From an uncultured archaeon (GTDB taxonomy: Archaea; Asgardarchaeota; Thorarchaeia; Thorarchaeales; Thorarchaeaceae), in assembly GCA_964473825.1 (NCBI GenBank), contig CAYYQL010000040.1, positions 1 through 22,273 of the forward strand: a stretch of 22,273 nucleotides of DNA, given 5' to 3'. A program made the position numbers and the translations under genes. Positions 1,013-17,458 of this stretch are shown one piece after another. The notes beneath the pieces are model-generated. The model saw only the letters and a program-made list of their open reading frames with translations, did not search any database and was not told the DNA's origin. Position 1 is the stretch's first letter. Each line of letters begins with the position of its first letter.

Positions 1013-2452
1013 TTGCTGGTCAAGACAGACAGAAAGGAGCTCATCAGCGTTGGCGTTGATATCGGCTCATCCACATCACATGTGATCTTCAGTCGAATCA
1101 CGCTGGAGAAGGACAGGATGAGCCGCAGTGAGAAGTTTGAGATTGCCGACAGAGAAGTGCTCCATTCGGGCAAGATCCATCTGACGCCGTTCTCAGATCC
1201 CGATACCATCGATTTCGAGCGACTTGAGCACCTCCTCCTAGTGGACTACAAACTAGCTGGCTTCAAGGTTTCCGAGATAGACACGGGGGCAGTCATCGTG
1301 ACAGGAGAAACAGCGAAGAAGCAGAATGCAGCCGAGATAGTCAATGCACTCGCTGGAGAAGCCGGCAGGTTCGTTTCTGCAACAGCTGGCCCGAACTTCG
1401 AGGCCGTACTGGCGGCTCATGGATCAGGATCTGTTTCGAGGTCGGAACGAACGGGGGAGACCGTGATGAACATCGATATTGGTGGCGGGTCATCCAATAT
1501 TGCAATATGCTCACACGGGCGGGTCATCGATACCTCAGCCATAAACGTCGGAGGTCGGCTCGTGGCCTTTGATGAGGATAATGTCATTACAAGACTCGAA
1601 AATACAGGCCGAGCTGTTGCACAGCTCATGGGTCTCAATCTGAAACTAGGAGGAGTCCTCACGGAGAGTGAAAAGCAGCTCCTAGCTGATATTCTAGCAT
1701 CAGCACTTATTGAAGCGATGATAGGAAATACCACGGATCTCGCCGTTAGTCTTCTTATGATGACAGAGCCCCTGAAGGAACTCGAAAGCATTAATGTGGT
1801 GACTCTCTCGGGCGGTGTTGCAGAGTTCATCTATGGTGAAGAGACCCGCAATTTCGGAGACCTTGGTCCACACCTTGCTGCAGCGATTAAGTCTAAGATC
1901 TTATCCAACGGATTCAGACTGGAGAGGCCGGAGCACCGGATACGCGCCACAGTCATCGGCGCAGGTCAGTGTAGTCTGCAGGTGAGCGGCTCAACAACTT
2001 TTCTCTCATCGGGTATCAGCTATCCCCTACGCAACCTGCCCGTTGTCGTTCCGCAGATCCCAAGAGGCAATGGTGGCGCAGATTCAGTCAGAGATGCAAT
2101 TCGTGATGCGTTGATACGGTTTGACCTGCAGGAGGGAGAAGACGATCTCATTCTTGCATTTCAGGACGCTGTTCGCCCGTCATACGAACGACTCACAGAG
2201 TTCTCCAAGGGTGTTGTGCAAGCCCTCCCCAAAACCGTGGACAGTGGGCGACCAATCATGATGTGTTTCGACACCGATGTTGGTAATAGCGTCGGCAATG
2301 TTATGAAGCGCGAGACTGGTATACGGAACGAGATCTTGTCAATCGACGAGGTCCCCCTAAGAGAGGGAGACTTCATTGATATCGGTGAGCCTATCATCGA
2401 GGGTGTAGTAGTTCCAATCGTCGTCAAGACGTTGGTCTTTCAATCGAATTAG
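1013..2452 (+). CDS. eutA: Ethanolamine ammonia-lyase reactivating factor EutA-like (actin-like ATPase fold)
   Basis: Motifs SVGVDIGSSTSH, TGAVIVTGETAKKQNA, FVSATAGPNFE, NIDIGGGSSN, IRATVIGAG and C-terminal GDFIDIGEP...VVPIVVKTLVF. GGTGA RBS at 1001-1005 precedes the TTG start. Confidence 0.9.
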   Translation: MLVKTDRKELISVGVDIGSSTSHVIFSRITLEKDRMSRSEKFEIADREVLHSGKIHLTPFSDPDTIDFERLEHLLLVDYKLAGFKVSEIDTGAVIVTGETAKKQNAAEIVNALAGEAGRFVSATAGPNFEAVLAAHGSGSVSRSERTGETVMNIDIGGGSSNIAICSHGRVIDTSAINVGGRLVAFDEDNVITRLENTGRAVAQLMGLNLKLGGVLTESEKQLLADILASALIEAMIGNTTDLAVSLLMMTEPLKELESINVVTLSGGVAEFIYGEETRNFGDLGPHLAAAIKSKILSNGFRLERPEHRIRATVIGAGQCSLQVSGSTTFLSSGISYPLRNLPVVVPQIPRGNGGADSVRDAIRDALIRFDLQEGEDDLILAFQDAVRPSYERLTEFSKGVVQALPKTVDSGRPIMMCFDTDVGNSVGNVMKRETGIRNEILSIDEVPLREGDFIDIGEPIIEGVVVPIVVKTLVFQSN

Positions 2453-2481
2453 ACTATCAATCGCATCAGGGGTGTAGATGA

Positions 2482-3339
2482 GTGAATGAAGTGATTAGAC
2501 CTCTCACAGAGAAGGATGAGGAAGATGTCATAGAGATTGGCCGACAAGTGTGGGGTGGCCACGACTATGTTCCATCAACCTTCCATACTTGGCTTGAGGA
2601 TGAGCTTTCACACCCACAGGCAATCGAGATAGAGGGTACGGTTGTGTGCTTTGCAAACCTGCGAGTGATAGACGATGGACGAACTGCTTGGTTTGAGGGG
2701 CTGAGAACACACCCAGAATGGCGCGGGCAGGGGCTCGCTAGGAGAATAACCGAGCATCTCGCAGTGATTGCAGAGCAATTAGAAGTGGACAGGATACGCT
2801 ATACAACCGCGTCAACCAATGAAGCTTCTCTCAAGATAGCTCACCACATCGGAATGAAAGAACGTTATCGAATGCGGGTCACATGGTTTCATCTTGGGAA
2901 ACTAGAATCCCATCCTTCGTCGGGACTCAAGGGGGTTGGAACAGACAAAGTGATTCAGCTACTCTCAGATTGCCCATCACTCATACCAATGAACACCATC
3001 GTCTATGACTGGAAAGTCCTAGAAGCCAGTCCACAGGGAGTATTGCGCGCGGCCGAGTCCAATCGTTTCTGGTTATATGAAGGGGTAAAGCCATCGCTTT
3101 CACTCGGGAAACAGCGAAACGAAGACGATGGGGTTCTCTGGTGTTTCACAATCTACGCACTACAAGAGGGTGATTTTCTCCAGCATCTGAACATCCATAT
3201 CAAACATGCAAAAGACAAGGGCTATGCTGAGGGTATGGCCACCTACCAGCTGGAATTCTCCCGTGTCTTTTCCGAGCTAATTCCAGATGAGAACAATGAC
3301 CGCGGCAGAACCCTCGTTTGTCTGGACAGAGAGATATAG
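2482..3339 (+). CDS. GNAT family N-acetyltransferase with C-terminal extension
   Basis: Acetyl-CoA motif EGLRTHPEWRGQGLA and N.AS motif (TNEASLKI). Starts 29 nt after eutA. Confidence 0.85.
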   Translation: MNEVIRPLTEKDEEDVIEIGRQVWGGHDYVPSTFHTWLEDELSHPQAIEIEGTVVCFANLRVIDDGRTAWFEGLRTHPEWRGQGLARRITEHLAVIAEQLEVDRIRYTTASTNEASLKIAHHIGMKERYRMRVTWFHLGKLESHPSSGLKGVGTDKVIQLLSDCPSLIPMNTIVYDWKVLEASPQGVLRAAESNRFWLYEGVKPSLSLGKQRNEDDGVLWCFTIYALQEGDFLQHLNIHIKHAKDKGYAEGMATYQLEFSRVFSELIPDENNDRGRTLVCLDREI

Positions 3340-3642
3340 AATCTGCCTTCACTCTTTCCTTTGTAGTAGAAGCCATTTCTTCCCACTATCGCTAAACAGC
3401 GCGTTGGTTCACGTCACTGATGTAGCTGCACTCGCAAAACAAAGGCTGGCCTTTCAGGTCTGGCTTCTCAACACGCTATGATTTCTGAGAAACTACGGAG
3501 ATTCCTATTGCTACCCATAGCATATACTGCATCACGGAAATAGGAGAGGTTTCATTGTCTTAGAACGTCACCATTACAGATAGATCCCAAGATGCTACAT
3601 CCCTCATGGATCTATTGCAAGTGCTCGCTGGTTTCACTCAGA

Positions 3643-4581
3643 TTAGCTGGTCTTCATTCGTTGAAGTCCCTCTGCAATGGCTGTCTGAAAATCACCACCT
3701 AGTGTAATCAAGAGACGTGGTTCTTCCACTATGATGGCGAAACGATATACAACTCCGAAATTCTGATTGCTGAAATAGAAGTACTCCGGGGGATGAAGAA
3801 ACCTATCTTCCCATTCGGTGCAGAGCCTGTCGAAAGTCCTCTTTACTTCATCTATGTTGTAGGACATATGCACGTAGACGTCGAAGCTATACCGGTATAT
3901 CTCCTCACCCTTGGTCAAGTACTTGAAGCGGTCAATAGCTGCATCCATTCTACTCTCTGACGAGATGTCTCGGTGATATTCTTCACCGCGTTCCTTCAGA
4001 TAGTCATCAATACGAACCCGGTAATTGGTGACTCCTGACTCCACAACCTTGTTATTGGGTACGAGTGCTCGATTGAAATCGGGCTGCATGATTTTTGTGT
4101 AATTGAGTGTTATCTCAAGTACGATTCCTTCTGTGTCGCCGATTTTGACATAATCCCCCACTCGGAACGGGCGTGCTGCAAATACATACAGACCACTCAC
4201 AACATTTCCGAGTGCTCTTGAAGATGCGAGACCGATAGCAGAACCGAGTAGCGTCGATATGGCTATGGCTGCATCTCCCAATACCACATTTGTTGTAGAT
4301 AACACAGCAAGAAAGGCAATTACAAAGAATATCAATCGAACAATGAAGACCGTACCACCCATCGCTTCTTGCTGCATGCCAATCTTCTGTGCTGATATCT
4401 TGACACTTCTGACCACGATCAGATATACCACATATATCAGAATCAGGAATGGCACGATTGCAACCCATTCGGCATAGCCTCCCAGCCCGTAAGGAGAAAG
4501 GAAGCCTCGGATGTACTCCACGAACGTTCGGAAGAAGTCTATCGTCTGCATCTCATGCACGTGCCAATCAACAAGATTCAT
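3643..4581 (-). CDS. MscS family small-conductance mechanosensitive channel (true start may be ATG 4551)
   Basis: Three hydrophobic helices followed by NVVSG..F..RPFRVGDYVKIG..EG.V.EI and VPNNKV. Confidence 0.85.
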   Translation of the reverse strand: MNLVDWHVHEMQTIDFFRTFVEYIRGFLSPYGLGGYAEWVAIVPFLILIYVVYLIVVRSVKISAQKIGMQQEAMGGTVFIVRLIFFVIAFLAVLSTTNVVLGDAAIAISTLLGSAIGLASSRALGNVVSGLYVFAARPFRVGDYVKIGDTEGIVLEITLNYTKIMQPDFNRALVPNNKVVESGVTNYRVRIDDYLKERGEEYHRDISSESRMDAAIDRFKYLTKGEEIYRYSFDVYVHMSYNIDEVKRTFDRLCTEWEDRFLHPPEYFYFSNQNFGVVYRFAIIVEEPRLLITLGGDFQTAIAEGLQRMKTS

Positions 4582-4615
4582 GGCTCAAAAGAGTTTTGCA
4601 AAAGGACGTCATCAT

Positions 4616-5056
4616 TCAATGATAGTACCGGGGTTCCAAGTCCTCGAACCATGACGGAACTCTAGCATCGTCAACTCGGTCTGAAGTCGGCGTGTAGGGT
4701 TTTAGATCAAGGACTGGGGTCCCATCGCGGGCATCTATCCTGTCAATCATTATGCGTTTCTCTACGGGCTGTAGTTCCCTGAGAGCTACAACAGAATGAC
4801 CTATGGGATTAGGACGGCGTGGAGATCTACATGCAAAAACACCTGAACGTGCTGATGCCTGACCGCGGGCTGGTTTCGGAGTCACAATCAGAGTGCCTCG
4901 GCTCTCGGGATTATCGTGACCATCAATCCACCAGATCACAATCAGATGTGAGAACTTGTCCAAGTTCAGCGTTCCCTCCCAATACTCACTCTCTAGCAGG
5001 ATGAATGTCTCTTCACTTTCCTTCCTGACACGGCCAATCTCCGATAGCTCAATCAT
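4616..5056 (-). CDS. tsaA: TsaA/TrmO (UPF0066) SAM-binding tRNA methyltransferase family protein
   Basis: Signatures FSHLIVIWW, GVFACRSPRRPNPIG and DARDGTPVLDLKPY. Confidence 0.85.
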   Translation of the reverse strand: MIELSEIGRVRKESEETFILLESEYWEGTLNLDKFSHLIVIWWIDGHDNPESRGTLIVTPKPARGQASARSGVFACRSPRRPNPIGHSVVALRELQPVEKRIMIDRIDARDGTPVLDLKPYTPTSDRVDDARVPSWFEDLEPRYYH

Positions 5057-5214
5057 GATTCTATATCTCTACTTGCCAGTGAAGAGGTCTCCTATAATAT
5101 CCAGTAGGAATTGAGGAACAAGAGTTGCTCATTAGGAAGGGCTGAGAGGCATCCTATTGGATTCCCCTTCGAAAGAGTCGACTTGGATAGCTATGTATCT
5201 TCTGTTGATGTTCG

Positions 5215-5781
5215 CTAGCCGGGATAACGACCATAGAAGAGGATCTTATCAATCACGTGTCTTTCGCTTGATCTAGTGATTACCTCTTTGCCTTTTGCAA
5301 GAATCCTGTCGGATAGCTTCTCAACATCTCCCTCATAGCCAATCGCAATTAGAGAAACCACTCGAAAACTGTCGGGAATTTGGAGGACGGCCTTGACCTC
5401 ATTCTCCCGATACCCCGCCATCTGGTGGCTTTTCAGGCCTTGATGCTCAGCCTCAATCACCAGGCTCATGACGCTCATGCCTGCATCGTAAGCATAGTAT
5501 GGAATATCGTTTTTGTCACAGTCCGAGCTGGGTTTTGCCGTGACAGCCACCAAAAGAGCAGCTTTCTTTGCCCATCCATTACCTAAAGAGAGTGCTTTCT
5601 CAAGCGCCTCTCTGGTGTCATCATCTTTCTTGACAACAACAAATCGCCATGGCTGATTATTATAGCATGATGGTGCTTTTCGTGCGGCTTCAAAGATAGC
5701 TTCAATCTTCTCTTGTTCTACAGGGCGCCCGTCTATTATTGGCGGACTGTACCTACCTGTGATCTCCTGAAGAATCTCCAT
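5215..5781 (-). CDS. Nitroreductase family protein
   Basis: Motifs RYSP, EAARKAPSCYNNQPWRF, YDAG, GLKSHQMAG and IAIGY. Confidence 0.92.
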   Translation of the reverse strand: MEILQEITGRYSPPIIDGRPVEQEKIEAIFEAARKAPSCYNNQPWRFVVVKKDDDTREALEKALSLGNGWAKKAALLVAVTAKPSSDCDKNDIPYYAYDAGMSVMSLVIEAEHQGLKSHQMAGYRENEVKAVLQIPDSFRVVSLIAIGYEGDVEKLSDRILAKGKEVITRSSERHVIDKILFYGRYPG

Positions 5782-9456: not shown

Positions 9457-10416
9457 CTACTTCTTTCGAAGAACCTCATACGAACCATACCCATTCTTAA
9501 CCCCATCAAACTCAAACTCTCCGAAGGACTGTATCAGAACCGATTGCTTGCCTGCAGCATCCTCGAATGGAATGGGAATTATTCGACCGGGTCGTGCCCT
9601 GAGTTCATGCTCTTTGTTTCGCGCGTCAACTATGAGGAGCTCGGTCAATGTGGGAAATACACCATCAGGGCGATAGTCTTGCTTCAGGACCTCTATCTTC
9701 TTGATAGGAACATTATCTCCCTCCTCAAAGATGAAACCTCCTGTGCTTATGCGTCCATCATCCAGAATGATGGCAGCCGGATTGAGGGCCAGGCGATCAT
9801 TAAACCAGATGACGAAATAGAGCCAATTACCAACTCCAGTCCAGTCACGTATCCCATGGGTATGGTCTCTCTGGGCCATGGCGTTGGATATGCTGAACAG
9901 AGATTCCCCAAACTCGAATTGTCCGGACACCTTACCAATCTGTTCCCAGTGCATGTCCCCGCTCTTCTTGCCAATCTCCAAGGATTCGGGGGTCATGTGC
10001 TCGCTGTACTCGTATGTGGCGTTGATAGCACGATAGTGAAGCTCCATCTTGCAATCAACAAGGTCTGCAATGAGCGATGGGTCCTGCCTGACTCGTGGAA
10101 GTATCTCTGAGTCTTCTACAATGACTAGAGTGCCGTCAAAGGTATACCTCCATTCACCATCACCAATGCAACGGTGCTCCACACCTCCGACCTTAATAGA
10201 ATCAGGATAGTGTTCGCCCTCATCATTGATATGGAAAGCACCTACCCGGCCATCGGGTTGGAAGACAAAGAGAAATGTCATGCCATCAGGGATATTGGGT
10301 TTAAAGCCGACTCTGCTCATTGCACCAATATCAGCTGACTGGTCATAGAAGATGAAGTAGTAGCTCTCGTTCCAATTGGGATCTGTTGAAGTCGGTTTGT
10401 GAGTCAGTTGTTCCAT
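9457..10416 (-). CDS. Uncharacterised beta-rich protein resembling AttH/CrtC/tocopherol-cyclase-like double beta-barrel proteins (DUF7064/7065-like)
   Basis: Motifs WNESYYF, HWEQ.G.VSG and RDHTHG.RDW. Family recognised from memory, not searched. Starts 2 nt after the upstream stop. Confidence 0.6.
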   Translation of the reverse strand: MEQLTHKPTSTDPNWNESYYFIFYDQSADIGAMSRVGFKPNIPDGMTFLFVFQPDGRVGAFHINDEGEHYPDSIKVGGVEHRCIGDGEWRYTFDGTLVIVEDSEILPRVRQDPSLIADLVDCKMELHYRAINATYEYSEHMTPESLEIGKKSGDMHWEQIGKVSGQFEFGESLFSISNAMAQRDHTHGIRDWTGVGNWLYFVIWFNDRLALNPAAIILDDGRISTGGFIFEEGDNVPIKKIEVLKQDYRPDGVFPTLTELLIVDARNKEHELRARPGRIIPIPFEDAAGKQSVLIQSFGEFEFDGVKNGYGSYEVLRKK

Positions 10417-10418
10417 GG

Positions 10419-13247
10419 TTAGGTGACCTCTTGCTCGATTGCCAGATATCCCTCACTGCCGTTCAACGTGACGGTCTGGCCAGTCTCCAGTAGTTGACAG
10501 GCCTTTCTAACGTTCGTGATTGCTGGAATGCCATACTCCCTTGAAACCACCGCGCCATGAGAGAGGATACCGCCTGTTTCTGTTATGAGTCCTCCAATCC
10601 TCGAGAAGACGGGTGTCCAACCGGGATCTGTTCTGGGGACCACAAGGATCTCACCTGCGCGGACCTGAGATATGTCTGCAACAGAGTTCAAGACACGTAT
10701 GGTACCAGATACTATTCCTTGACTCGCCGGAATCCCGATGAGCCTGCCGGTGGACTCTGGCAGTGGGTCATTGAACTCCCTTGAGCCTTCGAGGAACTTC
10801 GGAGGAGTGATGTTTTCGTAGCGTTTGAACTCGTCATGTCGTTCGCGTGCTAGTTCGCGAATCTCAGGTTTCGATAGAGAGGTAGAACCATCGACTATGC
10901 GACGGATCTCGTTCCTATGGAGAAAGAAGATGTCTATAGATTTGTCAAGATAGTCTTGATTCACCAATCGCTCTCCCAGAATTAGGAAGAGCCTTCGGTT
11001 TCGGGTTATCCACCGATCCAGATTGAACCTCTGATTCTCTCTGAAGACAGTGTAAGTCCGAGCGAAGCTCAGGATGGCCGAGAATAAGAGCCATTTGAAG
11101 CTTCCAAAAGCTTGTTTCTGAAGCTCTCTCTTTACCAGCCTTTCAGCCTGGCCACGTTCAATCTTTATTCTCTTGTCTGTTCGGTTGACAGCAGAGTGTT
11201 GACCACTCACCAAGGCCTTGATGATGTCAAACACATGCTGAGAAGATTCACGCCAGCGAGGGTAGTAGGGTTCTCTAGTGAATCCCCGGTCTCCGAAGTC
11301 GTCAATGAATCCATCGTACGCTTCAGTGAAGATGCGTGATGATTCGCTATCAACCGTCCTGATACGGTCATAAAGAACATCCGAGGGGGTTTCAGATATC
11401 AGTTCTGCTAATTCCGAGTCGTCCCTAGCCAAGCTTGCTAATTCATTCAGACGCTTGTTGGTCTCATTGGTCTTGTGATCTAACTCCGAAACCAAAACTG
11501 GAAACAAAATCGCGGCTGCCCTTTCCCCGAGAAACCTCTTCAGCAGATAATGTGTGATTAGATTCATGCCGATGTTGTGAACGGGAATTCCGTATCTCAC
11601 CAGTCTGAAGTGGCTCATCATGACGCGGTCGAGGTCGTCAGCATGTGCAAGAATCTCCTTCGCGGATGCCGCCTTCTGCAAGCGCTCGAAATCGCGGTCC
11701 AGTTTTTGGCAATATGGAACAAAGACGTTGTCAGTCCAGTCATTGTAGACCGAAGAAGTCTTGGTCATGCCTCCATTGTCGTCGTATAGCATCACTCGAA
11801 TCTCTGCAAGGAGCCTACTCTTGAGGTTGAAGGGCATTCTCTTCATGGTCTCTTTCCCATAGGGGCCGGACCCCTCTGGGAAGTAGTTGAGAAGGTCGTC
11901 TGATCTGAGAAACGGGGGAATTTCATTCTGGACCTTTTTCTTCAGCACTTCTACGTTGAAGTATGCGTGTGCCTTGTACAGCTTGAGCAGCTCTGATGGC
12001 ATGTCTTGGTAGCCCATTATATCATTCAGCTCATCATTAACGATAAACGTGAGCTGGTCGCCAAGAAGATCGAAGAACAAAGGAGTAACATCATCGTTCC
12101 AGTAATCGTCGCTATAACCACGGGTCCAGAGAATCACATCATCACTGCATTGCCTTACTCTCGATGTGGTCACGGGCCTTGATTGTAGAATATGGAGCCT
12201 CTCCGTTTCGTCGATAGCCCACTCAACGTCCTGTGGGTAACCAAACAAGGCCTCTATTGAAGCGCCAACCTCAGCAAGGTGAAGAGCCTGTCCGTCGCTT
12301 AGCGAGGAGTCTTCGCCCCGTTCTCGTGGAAGCTCGATTGTTTTTACACCCTCGAATCCGTCCTCGTTCAGATCTATTATCGTATCCTTCGTTCCAATCT
12401 CTTTGCTCACAAGCGAATAGCCATCCAACTCCTTCGCAACGATGTATCTGTCAGGCACTGCCCTCCCAGAAACTACCGACTCGCCGAGTCCGAAATTTGA
12501 CTCGATCATCATCTCATCGCCATTGTCAGATAGGGGGTTCTTTGTGAACAACACTCCTGCAGAACGAGGTTTGACCATCTTCTGAACTACGACTGCTAGA
12601 GCTGTCCCGTCTTGAGGTATTTCATTGTTGCTGCGGTAGGCCACAGCTCGGCGTGTCCACATTGACGCGAAACACTTCTTCACGGTCTCACAAATTCGTT
12701 CGACGCCTTCTATATTGAGAAATGTGTCGTATTGCCCTGCAAAAGATGCGTCGGGAAGGTCTTCGGCAGTAGCTGAAGACCTAATGGCAACAGGACCACC
12801 TCCTAGACGTTCGTACGCATCACGGATTGCCTCCACCAAACCCTTCGGAAGGTCAACATCATCTATGGCTTGTCTGACCTTGACAGAAGCTTCCTGAAGC
12901 AGACTTTCCTCCCTGCTTGTGGCGTTTTGAAGGCAGCTCCGGACTGCAGCTGAAATGAGTTCTGATGATGTGTGCTCGATATAGCCATCGGTCGTGACTA
13001 CAAACCCATCTGGGACGTCAAAGCCATTTTGGCGGAGGACAGCCAGATTACATGCCTTGCCACCAACTAGGCTGTGATCACGACACTCACTAGCAGCGAT
13101 GTCAATGGTTAGCGGAATCTTGGTTAACTTGTTAACCTCCCTATTAGTCTTCAAGCTATTCCGTGGTACGGCACAATCCCTCCTAAGAGGGTTTCGGCAA
13201 TAGTGAGGAGCTATTTCGACAGAAAGCCAATTGTGTAACAAGATCAT
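10419..13247 (-). CDS. PEP-synthase-like dikinase with rifampin phosphotransferase/PigC architecture (ATP-grasp, helical substrate domain, C-terminal His swivel domain)
   Basis: N-terminal GGKACNL, RSSATAEDLPDASFAGQYDT, QDVEWA and LQSRPVT. C-terminal TDPGWTPVF...GGILSHGAVVSREYGIPA. No pyruvate-binding TIM barrel follows the His domain. Confidence 0.9.
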   Translation of the reverse strand: MILLHNWLSVEIAPHYCRNPLRRDCAVPRNSLKTNREVNKLTKIPLTIDIAASECRDHSLVGGKACNLAVLRQNGFDVPDGFVVTTDGYIEHTSSELISAAVRSCLQNATSREESLLQEASVKVRQAIDDVDLPKGLVEAIRDAYERLGGGPVAIRSSATAEDLPDASFAGQYDTFLNIEGVERICETVKKCFASMWTRRAVAYRSNNEIPQDGTALAVVVQKMVKPRSAGVLFTKNPLSDNGDEMMIESNFGLGESVVSGRAVPDRYIVAKELDGYSLVSKEIGTKDTIIDLNEDGFEGVKTIELPRERGEDSSLSDGQALHLAEVGASIEALFGYPQDVEWAIDETERLHILQSRPVTTSRVRQCSDDVILWTRGYSDDYWNDDVTPLFFDLLGDQLTFIVNDELNDIMGYQDMPSELLKLYKAHAYFNVEVLKKKVQNEIPPFLRSDDLLNYFPEGSGPYGKETMKRMPFNLKSRLLAEIRVMLYDDNGGMTKTSSVYNDWTDNVFVPYCQKLDRDFERLQKAASAKEILAHADDLDRVMMSHFRLVRYGIPVHNIGMNLITHYLLKRFLGERAAAILFPVLVSELDHKTNETNKRLNELASLARDDSELAELISETPSDVLYDRIRTVDSESSRIFTEAYDGFIDDFGDRGFTREPYYPRWRESSQHVFDIIKALVSGQHSAVNRTDKRIKIERGQAERLVKRELQKQAFGSFKWLLFSAILSFARTYTVFRENQRFNLDRWITRNRRLFLILGERLVNQDYLDKSIDIFFLHRNEIRRIVDGSTSLSKPEIRELARERHDEFKRYENITPPKFLEGSREFNDPLPESTGRLIGIPASQGIVSGTIRVLNSVADISQVRAGEILVVPRTDPGWTPVFSRIGGLITETGGILSHGAVVSREYGIPAITNVRKACQLLETGQTVTLNGSEGYLAIEQEVT

Positions 13248-14353
13248 AGAGTGAGGGAGTGGGCTCTCTTGAGAGTTGACACAGCCTCTTCAATGATAAC
13301 GTCAACCAATTCAGAAACATGCGGGATGTCCGATATTCTGCCAGTACACTCTCCCGCGAACATGAGTGCTGTATCCTCCTTCTGATCTAGCAGGTCATCA
13401 AATCCTGATCGTTCCAGTTCAAGAATCTTCTCGTTGGACTCCACCGGTTCTCCGAGATAGAACCTCGGGGCATCCTCCAAGGTCTGTTCGACAATCCTCT
13501 CCGAGCGTGCGTTTCGAAGGAATCTCATGGGCCCAAACAAACCTCGTCCAGCCAATGTCTTCCGTTCCTCACTCTTGACAATCATCTCTTTCCACATAGG
13601 CTCAAAATCGCTCTCCTCTGTGGCGATGAATCTTGTTCCCATCTGAACGCCACATGCTCCATAGCAGAGAGCTGCAGCGAGACTCGCCCCATCACAGAAT
13701 CCTCCAGCTGCAACAACAGGTTTGTCGACTGCTCTGACAACTGCTGGCACCAGAACTGAGGAATGAACAGGATCCCAAGAAATGTGGGCGCCTCCCTCGT
13801 GACCTGAAGCAACGATGATATCTGCTCCTGATTTCTCGGCCTTCTTTGCATGATACACTGAAGGTACTACATGGATCCAGATGAGACCGTGCCGTTTCAC
13901 CTCAGCCCACGGTGCAGGATTCCCTGCAGACGTGATGAGAACGCGCAGCCGCCTCTCGATATCTGAATCGCTTGCTCGTGACTCAATGACCTGCTCGAAG
14001 AACATCTTCGATGCTAGCATGAACTCGGACGCAACAGGCACGTTCACTCCGAACACGGCGCCACTCTTTCTCGTTTCTTGTGCTACTGCTTCGATCGACT
14101 TCCGCAAGAGCTCACGGGGAGGATCCGTTCCAAAGAGTCGCTCGGCATCAACTGGAGCAGCATCAGGAAGAAGACTAGCAGCCATACCAATACTGCTTAT
14201 GACGCCAAGACATCCACTGTTACTGACTGCAATGGCAAGGGACTCCGTCTTATACGGCCCCATGCCTCCCTGTATGATGGGATGGTCGATGTCGAGTAGC
14301 TCGCACAGCTCGGTGCTGATTTTGGCCATGGGATAGAGACGGGGTACTAGCAT
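13244..14353 (-). CDS. Nitronate monooxygenase / FabK-type enoyl-ACP reductase family FMN oxidoreductase (likely start ATG 14329)
   Basis: Motifs HPIIQGGM, AVSNSGCLG, FGVN, GHEGGAH, PVVAAGG..DG and GVQMGTRFIAT.ES. A TTAAAT box lies about 25 nt upstream of ATG 14329. ATGA overlap with the next gene. Confidence 0.88.
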   Translation of the reverse strand: MLVPRLYPMAKISTELCELLDIDHPIIQGGMGPYKTESLAIAVSNSGCLGVISSIGMAASLLPDAAPVDAERLFGTDPPRELLRKSIEAVAQETRKSGAVFGVNVPVASEFMLASKMFFEQVIESRASDSDIERRLRVLITSAGNPAPWAEVKRHGLIWIHVVPSVYHAKKAEKSGADIIVASGHEGGAHISWDPVHSSVLVPAVVRAVDKPVVAAGGFCDGASLAAALCYGACGVQMGTRFIATEESDFEPMWKEMIVKSEERKTLAGRGLFGPMRFLRNARSERIVEQTLEDAPRFYLGEPVESNEKILELERSGFDDLLDQKEDTALMFAGECTGRISDIPHVSELVDVIIEEAVSTLKRAHSLTL

Positions 14354-14542: not shown

Positions 14543-16585
14543 TTGTCTACTATGACTGCTCAGCTCCCCTATTTTGATGAGAAGCTGGATATTGAGGCTC
14601 GGGCAGGAGATCTGCTCTCAAGACTCTCCTTAGAGGAGAAGTTCAGACTGCTCGCCAGCCATGGGTGGCTACGAATATACACCACCAACCCAATCAAGCG
14701 CCTGAAGATCCCCTCGTTGAAGATGACTGATGGACCGTTAGGAGTAGCTATGCACTCCAGTGGATTCAAGAAGAACACAAGGTTTCCAGCACCCATCGCG
14801 CTTGCTGCCTCTTGGAACAGGGGGCTTATGGAAAGAATAGGTGAGGCAATGGGGAGGGAGGTTCGGGCAGTGGGACGGCAGGTGTTGCTTGCCCCGGGCA
14901 TCAACATCCACCGAACGCCGCTAAATGGCCGCACATTTGAGTACTTCAGTGAAGACCCGTACCTCACGAAGGAGTTGGCAATCCCATTTGTCAGAGGTGT
15001 TCAGAGTCAGCGTGTGGCGGCCTGTCTGAAACACTATGTGGCAAATAACCAGGAGATTGACCGAAGATCCTCGAGCTCGGAGATTGACGAGCGCACTCTG
15101 CATGAGATTTATCTTCGGGCTTTCCGGGCCACAGTAAAGGAGGCAGACCCATGGACACTCATGACCTGCTACAACATGGTAAACGGTGTCTATGGTTGCG
15201 AGAATGAGTATCTCCTGCAAGAAACTCTGTTTGACGCGTGGAGCTTTGACGGACTCGTCATGACTGACTGGTTCTCGTCACGGAATGCAGAGTCCACTGC
15301 AAGATGCCTCAATGCCGGTCTGACCCTTGAGATGCCATGGCCGGCTAGATACAAGACAAAGACTCTTCGAGAGGTCCTTAGTGAAGGAAACATCAACGAG
15401 GACACGCTAGATGATCGGGTTCGAAGGAACCTCCGAGTCATGTTGCAGACAGGTCTGTTTGATAGACCAGATTCATTGCTTCAGGGGTCACGCAATACAC
15501 CTGAACACCAAGAACTCGTCCGTCGTGCTGCCGAGGAAGGAATGGTACTTCTGAAGAATAAAGGCAATCTCTTACCTCTCGATATTGATTCACTGAACGT
15601 AATCAGTCTATCTGGGGACAATCTGAAGAAGAAATTTGGCAGGTTGCTCTACGGTGGATCTTCTGCTGTGAGCCCTCCATATGAAGCGACTCCATTGCAG
15701 GGGATGAAAGAGAGGTGCCGTGGTAAGGTTGACTTGGTACGCGGGAACAAGCCCGCGGATGTAGCCATTATCTTTGCGGGACTGAATCACGGCCGAGGAG
15801 GCGATTCCGAGTCTATGGATAGAGAATCTCTACATCTGGATGATGGGCAAGTCAGAGAGATCAAGGAGGTAGCAAGCACTCATTTCCAGACTGTGGTCTG
15901 CCTCATTGCAGGAAGCCCAATAGCCATGGATGAGTGGCTTGATGATGTCGAAGCGGTCGTCATGTGCTGGTATGGAGGAATGGAGGCAGGTCATGCGATT
16001 GCTAACGTACTGCTCGGCGATGTTAATCCATCAGGAAAACTACCACTGACGTTCCCCAAGAGATTGAGAGACTCTCCTGCTCACAGCACCGACAGTTCAA
16101 GGACCTATCCAGGCAATGGCCAGAAGAGAGTCCATTACGATGAGGGGATATACGTCGGTTATCGCTGGTTTGACCAGAAGAAGATTGAACCATTGTTCCC
16201 GTTCGGATATGGACTATCGTACACCGAATTCGAATACCAGAACGTATCGCTAGACGGACAGTCGATGAGCAGACCAGCCGACACAGTGGTTGTTAGCATT
16301 GACGTGACCAATACTGGAGAACGCGCCGGAGCTGAGGTCGTTCAAGTCTATGCACGCGACGTTGAGGCGTCAGTGAATCGCCCTCCACAAGAGCTTGTTG
16401 GCTTCCAGAAGATACTACTGGAACCAGGTGCGACTGCTGAGATGAGGATAGCAGTGAGAGGAGAAGACCTTGCATTCTATAGTGTAAAGGACAAGATGTG
16501 GAAAGTGGAACCAGGACACTTCAGATTGCTTATTGGAAAATCCTCAAGGGAAACCATTGCCGAGACCGATTTTGTCTATGAGTAG
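14543..16585 (+). CDS. Glycoside hydrolase family 3 beta-glucosidase (cytoplasmic; GH3 N, GH3 C, Fn3-like)
   Basis: Motifs MTDGPLG, LAPGINIHRTPLNGRTFEYFSEDP, KHYVANNQE, nucleophile motif VMTDW, NPSGKLP.TFP, EGIYVGYRWF and FPFGYGLSYT. No signal peptide. Confidence 0.95.
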   Translation: MSTMTAQLPYFDEKLDIEARAGDLLSRLSLEEKFRLLASHGWLRIYTTNPIKRLKIPSLKMTDGPLGVAMHSSGFKKNTRFPAPIALAASWNRGLMERIGEAMGREVRAVGRQVLLAPGINIHRTPLNGRTFEYFSEDPYLTKELAIPFVRGVQSQRVAACLKHYVANNQEIDRRSSSSEIDERTLHEIYLRAFRATVKEADPWTLMTCYNMVNGVYGCENEYLLQETLFDAWSFDGLVMTDWFSSRNAESTARCLNAGLTLEMPWPARYKTKTLREVLSEGNINEDTLDDRVRRNLRVMLQTGLFDRPDSLLQGSRNTPEHQELVRRAAEEGMVLLKNKGNLLPLDIDSLNVISLSGDNLKKKFGRLLYGGSSAVSPPYEATPLQGMKERCRGKVDLVRGNKPADVAIIFAGLNHGRGGDSESMDRESLHLDDGQVREIKEVASTHFQTVVCLIAGSPIAMDEWLDDVEAVVMCWYGGMEAGHAIANVLLGDVNPSGKLPLTFPKRLRDSPAHSTDSSRTYPGNGQKRVHYDEGIYVGYRWFDQKKIEPLFPFGYGLSYTEFEYQNVSLDGQSMSRPADTVVVSIDVTNTGERAGAEVVQVYARDVEASVNRPPQELVGFQKILLEPGATAEMRIAVRGEDLAFYSVKDKMWKVEPGHFRLLIGKSSRETIAETDFVYE

Positions 16586-16681: not shown

Positions 16682-17458
16682 ATGACCGAAGAGCTGGATG
16701 ACAAAACAAAGAGAGCGTTACTGAGGTTCGCGGTTAAAGCTGCAGAAGAGGCTGGGCGGCTTACACTGGAGTATTTCCAGCAATCTATCCGTGTCGAGAG
16801 AAAGGCAGATGACACGCCTGTTACTCTCGCAGACCGGCAATCAGAGCAACTCATCCGCAATTCCATAGAGTCTGAGTATCCGTCCCACTCCATTCTGGGT
16901 GAGGAATTCAAAGACAAGAAGACCAAGTCTCCCTTCAGATGGATTCTTGATCCGATAGATGGGACGCAGTCCTTCGTTCGTGGTGTCCCCCTGTACGCAG
17001 TTCTCATCGCCCTACAGTACCAGCGTCAGCCCTTGCTGGGAGTCATCCATGTCCCGCCGCTAGAGGAAACGGTCTCTGCTGCAGTTGGAATAGGATGCTA
17101 TCATAGAGGCGAAAGGTGCCGTGTGAGAGATACTGAATCACTCGCTGATGCTTGGGTTCATGTCACAGATGTGGTTTCGTTGGCTAGGCACAGGCCTGCC
17201 TTTCTAAGCCGCTTGCTCCAACAGGTCGGCTATCTGAGAACTTGGGGCGATGCTTATGGCTATCTGCTTGTTGCCACAGGCCGTGCACATGTGATGATTG
17301 ACCCAGTCATGAAAATCTGGGATATTGCGCCTCTTATGCCAATAGTGACAGAAGCGGGCGGATGGTTTGGAGACCTTGATGGCAATGCCAACGCTTTCGG
17401 AGATTCTGCCTTGGCATGTGTGCCTGCACTGCGCGAAAGAATCCTCAAGCTCCTGTGA
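16682..17458 (+). CDS. Inositol monophosphatase family protein, HisN-type histidinol-phosphatase-like
   Basis: Motifs KADDTPVTLADR..E, ILGEE, WILDPIDGT.SF, RTWGDAYGY and WDIAP. Confidence 0.85.
   Translation: MTEELDDKTKRALLRFAVKAAEEAGRLTLEYFQQSIRVERKADDTPVTLADRQSEQLIRNSIESEYPSHSILGEEFKDKKTKSPFRWILDPIDGTQSFVRGVPLYAVLIALQYQRQPLLGVIHVPPLEETVSAAVGIGCYHRGERCRVRDTESLADAWVHVTDVVSLARHRPAFLSRLLQQVGYLRTWGDAYGYLLVATGRAHVMIDPVMKIWDIAPLMPIVTEAGGWFGDLDGNANAFGDSALACVPALRERILKLL

Follow-up and report, generated by a model that had tools for sequence, protein, structure and literature searches.

The closest described system to the locus analyzed here is the ATP-dependent dehydration carried out by the kinase 25-HSK and the 25-phosphosteroid lyase 25-PSL (PDB 9fzn, 9g2i, 9g4c). 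In Sterolibacterium denitrificans, 25-HSK uses ATP to phosphorylate the tertiary alcohol at C25 in the side chain of the steroid, after which a separate C-O lyase, 25-PSL, expels the phosphate by elimination and yields the delta-24 alkene (PMC8449060, PMC11061730). The group-transfer potential of this tertiary phosphoester is near that of ATP, so that the ADP-forming reaction of 25-HSK is fully reversible, and no candidate gene for the lyase lies near the kinase gene (PMC8449060). The small-molecule dikinases form AMP instead and pass through a phospho-histidine intermediate; the two-component phenol-type enzymes PpsAB, CreHI and HpeHI, which belong to the same superfamily, phosphorylate phenolic hydroxyls, and no lyase partner is named for them (PMC12167813). 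In the rifampin phosphotransferase RPH (PDB 5hv1, 5fbs), an ATP-grasp domain, a helical substrate domain and a swivel domain with the catalytic histidine follow each other in this order.

We analyzed a stretch of 22,273 nt from an uncultured archaeon of the family Thorarchaeaceae (contig CAYYQL010000040.1 of assembly GCA_964473825.1), hereafter the window. A first-pass annotation had proposed that three of its genes, encoding a FabK/NMO flavoenzyme, a dikinase and an AttH/CrtC-like barrel protein, form one pathway. The three co-directional ORFs are indeed there, all on the minus strand: a flavoenzyme ORF of 369 aa (13244-14353), a dikinase whose longest ORF has 942 aa (10419-13247) and a barrel protein of 319 aa (9457-10416). 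We find a two-gene unit of a kinase and a lyase, made of the last two genes, to be strongly supported as a unit. That this unit is an ATP-driven dehydratase, converting an alcohol to a phosphoester and the latter to an alkene and Pi, is moderately supported, and we give this reading a probability of about 0.6. What we observe directly is how the domains are arranged, that the proteins are homologous to RPH and 25-PSL, and that the two genes are conserved as neighbours or fused; how each step proceeds, what kind of substrate is used and why so much energy is spent are inferred in silico.

The 942-aa protein has the architecture of RPH and PigC and not that of a PEP synthase, as had been proposed. 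Pfam places the ATP-grasp (AMP/ATP-binding) domain PPDK_N at residues 59-363 (PF01326, E 1.6e-92; minus strand, 12159-13073) and the phospho-histidine swivel domain PEP-utilizers at residues 864-933 (PF00391, E 6.5e-23; minus strand, 10449-10658), where the motif GILSHGAVV carries the catalytic His897 (codon 10557-10559, minus strand, checked by translation). Between the two, residues 364-863 (minus strand, 10659-12158) make up a central domain of ~500 aa, largely helical in the model and listed in Pfam as PF27448, which presumably binds the second substrate. The PEP-utilizers_C barrel (PF02896) is absent from the protein according to Pfam, and the chain stops 9 residues after the swivel domain. 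This layout, with an LSHGA histidine domain and no pyruvate barrel, is the one that the first-pass annotation had described. The AF2 model (pLDDT 86) is aligned by Foldseek with RPH 5hv1 over its full length (928 columns, E 1.5e-48, 25% identity), and in this alignment the central domain falls on the region of RPH that binds rifampin. For PEPS and PPDK structures the alignment covers just 350-420 columns, in the ATP-grasp part.

At the level of curated families, the dikinase remains under every NCBIfam cut-off of the PEPS, RPH, PigC and RedH models. It scores 381.6 bits with the PEP synthase model TIGR01418 (cut-off 739.75), with matches in the ATP-grasp and swivel parts only, and 66 with TIGR01828 (cut-off 843). 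The values are 430.8 bits for the RPH equivalog NF041857 (cut-off 999), 304 for NF000283 (cut-off 1700), 379 for PigC (cut-off 1300) and 345 for RedH (cut-off 1350). The protein shares with RPH the order of the domains and the catalytic histidine motif; it differs in this family score, in its obligate lyase partner and in its archaeal host. The ATP-grasp domain has kept every residue that does not vary in the family alignment, among them R156, S157, S158, D163, Q339, D340 and E342, and H897 and the nucleotide-site residues are invariant among 54 dikinase sequences. Across the dikinase alignments, drawn from archaea and a few bacteria, the mean column identity is 46%. The central domain is highly conserved, rich in invariant polar and aromatic residues, and includes the motifs LWTRGYxDDYWND, HFRLVRYGIPVHN and FRENQRFNLDRW. 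This unusually strong conservation suggests one substrate common to the different phyla. The nearest homologues are named Thorarchaeota, and public sources label homologues as pyruvate, water dikinase, the mis-annotation as PEP synthase that had been anticipated.

The 319-aa protein matches the Pfam families DUF7065 (E 1e-9) and DUF7064 (E 7e-8), and a literature search returned no function for DUF7064, DUF7065 or Rv3169. Its AlphaFold model (pLDDT 96, pTM 0.92) is all-beta with two barrels, and the AttH-type two-barrel fold covers the whole length of the protein. The earlier description as an AttH/CrtC-like barrel therefore holds for the AttH-type fold, but CrtC-type hydratases were not among the structural matches. 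The top ranks in Foldseek are the three 25-PSL entries (E 1e-15), followed by AttH, fungal decalin-forming Diels-Alderases and kievitone hydratase. It is the sequence that decides between them and makes 25-PSL the nearest solved relative: a profile of 71 family members matches 9fzn over the full length (E 5e-24, positions 7-315 against 18-352), whereas the same profile against AttH (PDB 2ich) gives a non-significant E of 0.82, and there is no significant sequence match to CrtC-type hydratases, kievitone hydratase or the fungal Diels-Alderases either. The single barrel sequence, searched with phmmer against the PDB, did not reach 25-PSL and gave weak PsaD matches over ~60 residues only, no single stretch of which passed by itself.

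The barrel family and 25-PSL have in common an RDxxxGxR core. In the window's protein it is part of the motif RDHTHGIRDW (R183-W192; minus strand, 9841-9870), which aligns with RDRSWGVR of 25-PSL, and among the 71 family members G188 is invariant while R183, D184 and R190 are nearly so. Compared with 9fzn, the chain of 9g4c, a complex with phosphate and the alkene product, has an Asn in place of the Asp of this RD, i.e., at the equivalent of D184 (codon 9865-9867, checked by translation). Judging from this variant of the depositors, D184 would be a catalytic residue. However, the barrel protein is only ~20% identical to 25-PSL, and E17, S18, H156, E158, D191 and W192, nearly invariant in the dikinase-linked clade, are different in 25-PSL, so its chemistry could differ as well. 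As a relative of 25-PSL, the barrel protein is more likely to be a phosphate-eliminating C-O lyase than the hydratase or cyclase that had been suggested, and we refine its role in this sense.

The two genes are found together far beyond the window. An orthologue of the barrel gene is present in 9 of the 25 family genomes sampled, the window's genome counted. The dikinase gene is directly upstream of it in all eight loci of relatives, seven from within the family and one from another family of the phylum, and adjoins it in 78 of 80 wider loci. The latter were retrieved with the alignment and motifs of the dikinase-linked clade, and the count applies to this clade, not to the whole DUF7065/7064 family; one of the two exceptions (L097) has a split dikinase instead. 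The archaeal loci come from Thor-, Loki- and Hodarchaeota, Bathyarchaeia, Methanomassiliicoccales and other Thermoplasmatota, Methanobacteriaceae, Methanofastidiosa, Methanomethylicia, Thermococci, Theionarchaea and Halobacteria, and the bacterial ones from Chloroflexota, Proteobacteria and Actinomycetota. The synteny that the first-pass annotation had proposed to look for across archaea and bacteria exists for the dikinase and the barrel protein. The gaps between the two genes are short (median ~20 nt), and the 2-nt gap noted earlier in the window (10418-10417) is present and typical of the family. Identity to the window's proteins declines in parallel for the dikinase and the barrel protein (r = 0.91, n = 62; the loci are related to each other and do not count as independent).

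The pair also occurs as a single protein. Natural fusions of ~1180 aa carry PPDK_N, PEP-utilizers, DUF7065 and DUF7064 in that order; a search with the 319-aa protein gave two fused representatives of 1178 aa (P0127) and 1124 aa (P0267), and fused ORFs of 1183 and 1181 aa are found in two Thermoplasmatota genomes (L053 and L067). In two further proteins (P0163 and P0167), of 766 and 801 aa, the ATP-grasp domain alone is joined to the barrel. When the 857 ORFs of 88 loci were clustered, no third gene was conserved with the pair beyond single lineages. The neighbours found are lineage-specific: a His_Phos_1 phosphatase (15 Thorarchaeota loci), an IMPase (7 loci), an AP-superfamily phosphodiesterase (one locus), ABC ATPases and flavoenzymes. 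It is clear that dikinase and barrel protein form one functional unit.

The junction between the flavoenzyme and dikinase genes differs from what had been described. The letters of the ATGA overlap are present at 13247-13244, but they are doubtful as a real gene junction. A 1-nt indel in the two other genomes of the genus puts the first ~31 dikinase codons out of frame there, residues 1-41 of the AF2 model have a pLDDT of 25-36, i.e., below 50, and the GGKA motif, which lies 18-30 residues from the start in homologues, is 62 residues away in the 942-aa ORF. These observations indicate that the ATG is probably a false start and that translation of the dikinase probably begins at the TTG at 13154-13152. 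This start gives a protein of 911 aa, the usual length in the family, and leaves 89 nt after the flavoenzyme gene as a probable spacer (13155-13243, minus strand). The DNA past the flavoenzyme stop codon is well conserved among the genomes of the genus despite the frame-shifting indel. The spacer includes an inverted repeat, CCCTCttagGAGGG, at 13178-13191, and a GGGAGG lies downstream of it, inside the TTG-started ORF, at about 13136-13141. A scan for sigma-70 promoters and terminators performed no better than on shuffled sequences, and sigma-70 models are ill-suited to archaea.

In the reaction that we propose, ATP bound at the ATP-grasp domain would transfer its beta-phosphate to His897 of the swivel domain, with release of AMP and Pi. 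A second substrate, bound in the helical central domain, would then receive this phosphate on a hydroxyl, and the 25-PSL-like barrel would bind the resulting phosphoester and eliminate the phosphate to form a C=C bond. The net reaction would be R-OH + ATP + H2O -> alkene + AMP + 2 Pi. The expense of two anhydride bonds would make irreversible the phosphorylation of a poor, probably tertiary aliphatic, alcohol. Given a partner protein that eliminates phosphate, the substrate is more likely to be an aliphatic, probably tertiary, alcohol than a phenol, which speaks against the phenolic activation that had been among the options of the first-pass annotation. The dikinase would differ on this point from PpsAB, CreHI and HpeHI, although split forms occur here as well, including in this genome. 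More specifically, and tentatively, the pair might be a conserved single-substrate AMP-forming dehydratase of anaerobic archaea acting on a tertiary isoprenoid-type alcohol, as a step in lipid or isoprenoid metabolism or repair. The recruitment of a dikinase would then be explained by the high energy of tertiary phosphoesters, beyond what an ordinary kinase can provide.

Other readings of the locus are less probable. The original one, a three-step pathway on one substrate in this genus, would have the FMN enzyme reduce the alkene made by the pair, for a net deoxygenation, or oxidise its precursor. The flavoenzyme belongs to the broad NMO family (PF03060, E 6e-48), in agreement with the first-pass annotation, but the more precise FabK assignment does not reach its equivalog cut-off (TIGR03151, 183.5 bits for 453.1). 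All three genomes of the genus have it next to the pair, with strand and order unchanged; a short spacer of at most 89 nt separates it from the dikinase gene, and in two bacterial loci (L082 and L098) the pair has unrelated flavoenzymes as neighbours, all of which would fit a common pathway. However, this adjacency is restricted to the genus and is seen in none of the 80 wider loci. The phyletic patterns differ too: 23 of the 25 family genomes have an NMO orthologue (69-90% identity) but only 9 have the pair, and in genomes of other genera with both, the two lie on different contigs or, in one case (G036), 93 kb apart. In another genus the NMO gene adjoins an IMPase gene instead, and the IMPase gene of the window goes with the NMO gene rather than with the pair. 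The translational coupling by ATGA is itself doubtful. Because of its adjacency in a single genus, its absence from the wider loci and its different phyletic pattern, we exclude the NMO enzyme from the unit: it is a bystander, a core gene of the family that is a chance neighbour of the pair in the window's genus. The lack of co-conservation, which the first-pass annotation itself had named as refuting evidence, speaks against its three-gene pathway, which we now regard as improbable.

We hold it similarly improbable that phosphate is installed as a leaving group for some other carbocation chemistry of the barrel, such as a cyclisation, a rearrangement or a substitution. The pericyclases and hydratases of the same fold would fit such a role, but homology at the sequence level is detected to 25-PSL only, and those fungal enzymes are 10-15% identical to the barrel protein and lack a kinase partner. 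To our knowledge, neither AttH, CrtC-type hydratases and kievitone hydratase nor the fungal Diels-Alderases need a kinase. Slightly less probable still is a detoxification or resistance system of the RPH type, which would stop at the phosphorylation of a foreign hydrophobic compound and use the barrel just to bind or carry it. Among solved structures the kinase is closest to a resistance enzyme, and the pair is patchy in the family, like accessory genes; yet the strong conservation of the central domain and the barrel across phyla suits one substrate better than varied xenobiotics, the barrel retains the motif of the enzyme 25-PSL, and the dikinase falls short of the RPH equivalog. As for a PEP synthase or PPDK of central carbon metabolism, the public labels of the homologues point to it, as does the fact that the dikinase is the best match of the genome to the PEP_synth model, where no protein of the genome exceeds the cut-off. 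With about half of the required score in TIGR01418 (382 vs 740 bits), the missing PEP-utilizers_C barrel and the partial structural alignments, we consider it extremely improbable. The reading of the pair as an ATP-driven dehydratase is the one that we retain.

Compared with the steroid system, the kinase here is of an unrelated type, an AMP-forming dikinase of ~910 aa, whereas 25-HSK is ADP-forming and of ~40 kDa. The genes are adjacent or fused here and apart in Sterolibacterium, and the hosts are anaerobic archaea. As far as we know, the only described case of ATP-dependent dehydration by a kinase and a lyase in tandem is one bacterial pathway for steroids. In the loci studied here the lyase has a kinase of a different class as its partner, both in operons and in fusions. 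The spread of the pair over Asgard archaea, Bathyarchaeia, Thermoplasmatota, several methanogen lineages and some bacteria points to a widespread reaction that has not been studied, and, should the isoprenoid-type alcohol be the substrate, to a step of lipid or isoprenoid metabolism or repair that has gone unrecognised in archaea. The PEP synthase label on the dikinase also has a practical consequence, as gluconeogenesis could be wrongly inferred from it in metabolic reconstructions.

A second cassette, with divergent genes, is found on another contig of the same assembly (C16), and we count it in favour of the kinase-lyase reading. It encodes a stand-alone ATP-grasp protein of 327 aa, a stand-alone swivel domain of 117 aa, and a 400-aa protein without a Pfam match, whose gene overlaps by 4 nt that of a 306-aa paralogue of the lyase, 24% identical to the barrel protein of the window. 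The 400-aa protein was considered as a relative of the central domain of the dikinase and rejected, with no match by BLASTP and a probability of 0.5% in hhalign. The set made of the 400-aa protein, the lyase and the swivel domain recurs in loci of Bathyarchaeia and Thermoplasmata. Fused-type and split-type cassettes co-exist in this one genome.

The genome that carries the window also encodes a second cassette of the split type, on another contig (L101, contig C16, positions 1604-5233). There, an ATP-grasp protein (1604-2587) and a swivel His domain (2606-2959) are encoded by separate genes on the minus strand, followed on the plus strand by a 400-aa protein without any match in Pfam (3114-4316) and by a paralogue of the window's 25-phosphosteroid-lyase-like barrel protein (4313-5233). 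A counterpart of the 400-aa protein, 63% identical to it, was found at a related locus (L044), again beside a lyase paralogue. Two further protein representatives, P0163 and P0167, have an ATP-grasp domain fused to a lyase-like barrel alone, without a swivel domain, which implies that the proposed relay of phosphate from ATP-grasp domain to swivel His to substrate has additional split arrangements.

No protein of the window's genome, which is 95.7% complete, reaches the cut-off of the PEP synthase model. The only match to this model outside both cassettes is a 905-aa frame (contig C14, 4494-6500), possibly a PPDK.

The DNA between the FMN-enzyme gene (NMO) and the probable TTG start of the dikinase (13155-13243) is conserved within the genus, even with a frame-shifting indel, and contains the inverted repeat CCCTCttagGAGGG at 13178-13191. 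A GGGAGG motif lies downstream of this spacer, at about 13136-13141, within the TTG-started dikinase ORF, and no canonical start codon follows closely after it.

In 15 Thorarchaeota loci, the dikinase-lyase pair is followed by a histidine-phosphatase-family gene (L015, 9009-9674; L017, 6851-7492; L018, 9025-9666; and 12 others), which is absent from this position in the window's genus. An inositol-monophosphatase-family gene occurs near NMO in the window (16682-17458) and directly upstream of NMO in a different genus (L106, 693-1445); six loci of Methanomassiliicoccales and Methanomethylicus also have unrelated IMPase genes near the pair. Finally, a GH3 glycosidase gene (14543-16585) is divergent from NMO in the window. 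G002, a relative from the same genus, lacks it at the corresponding position and has a 234-aa ORF without Pfam match there instead.
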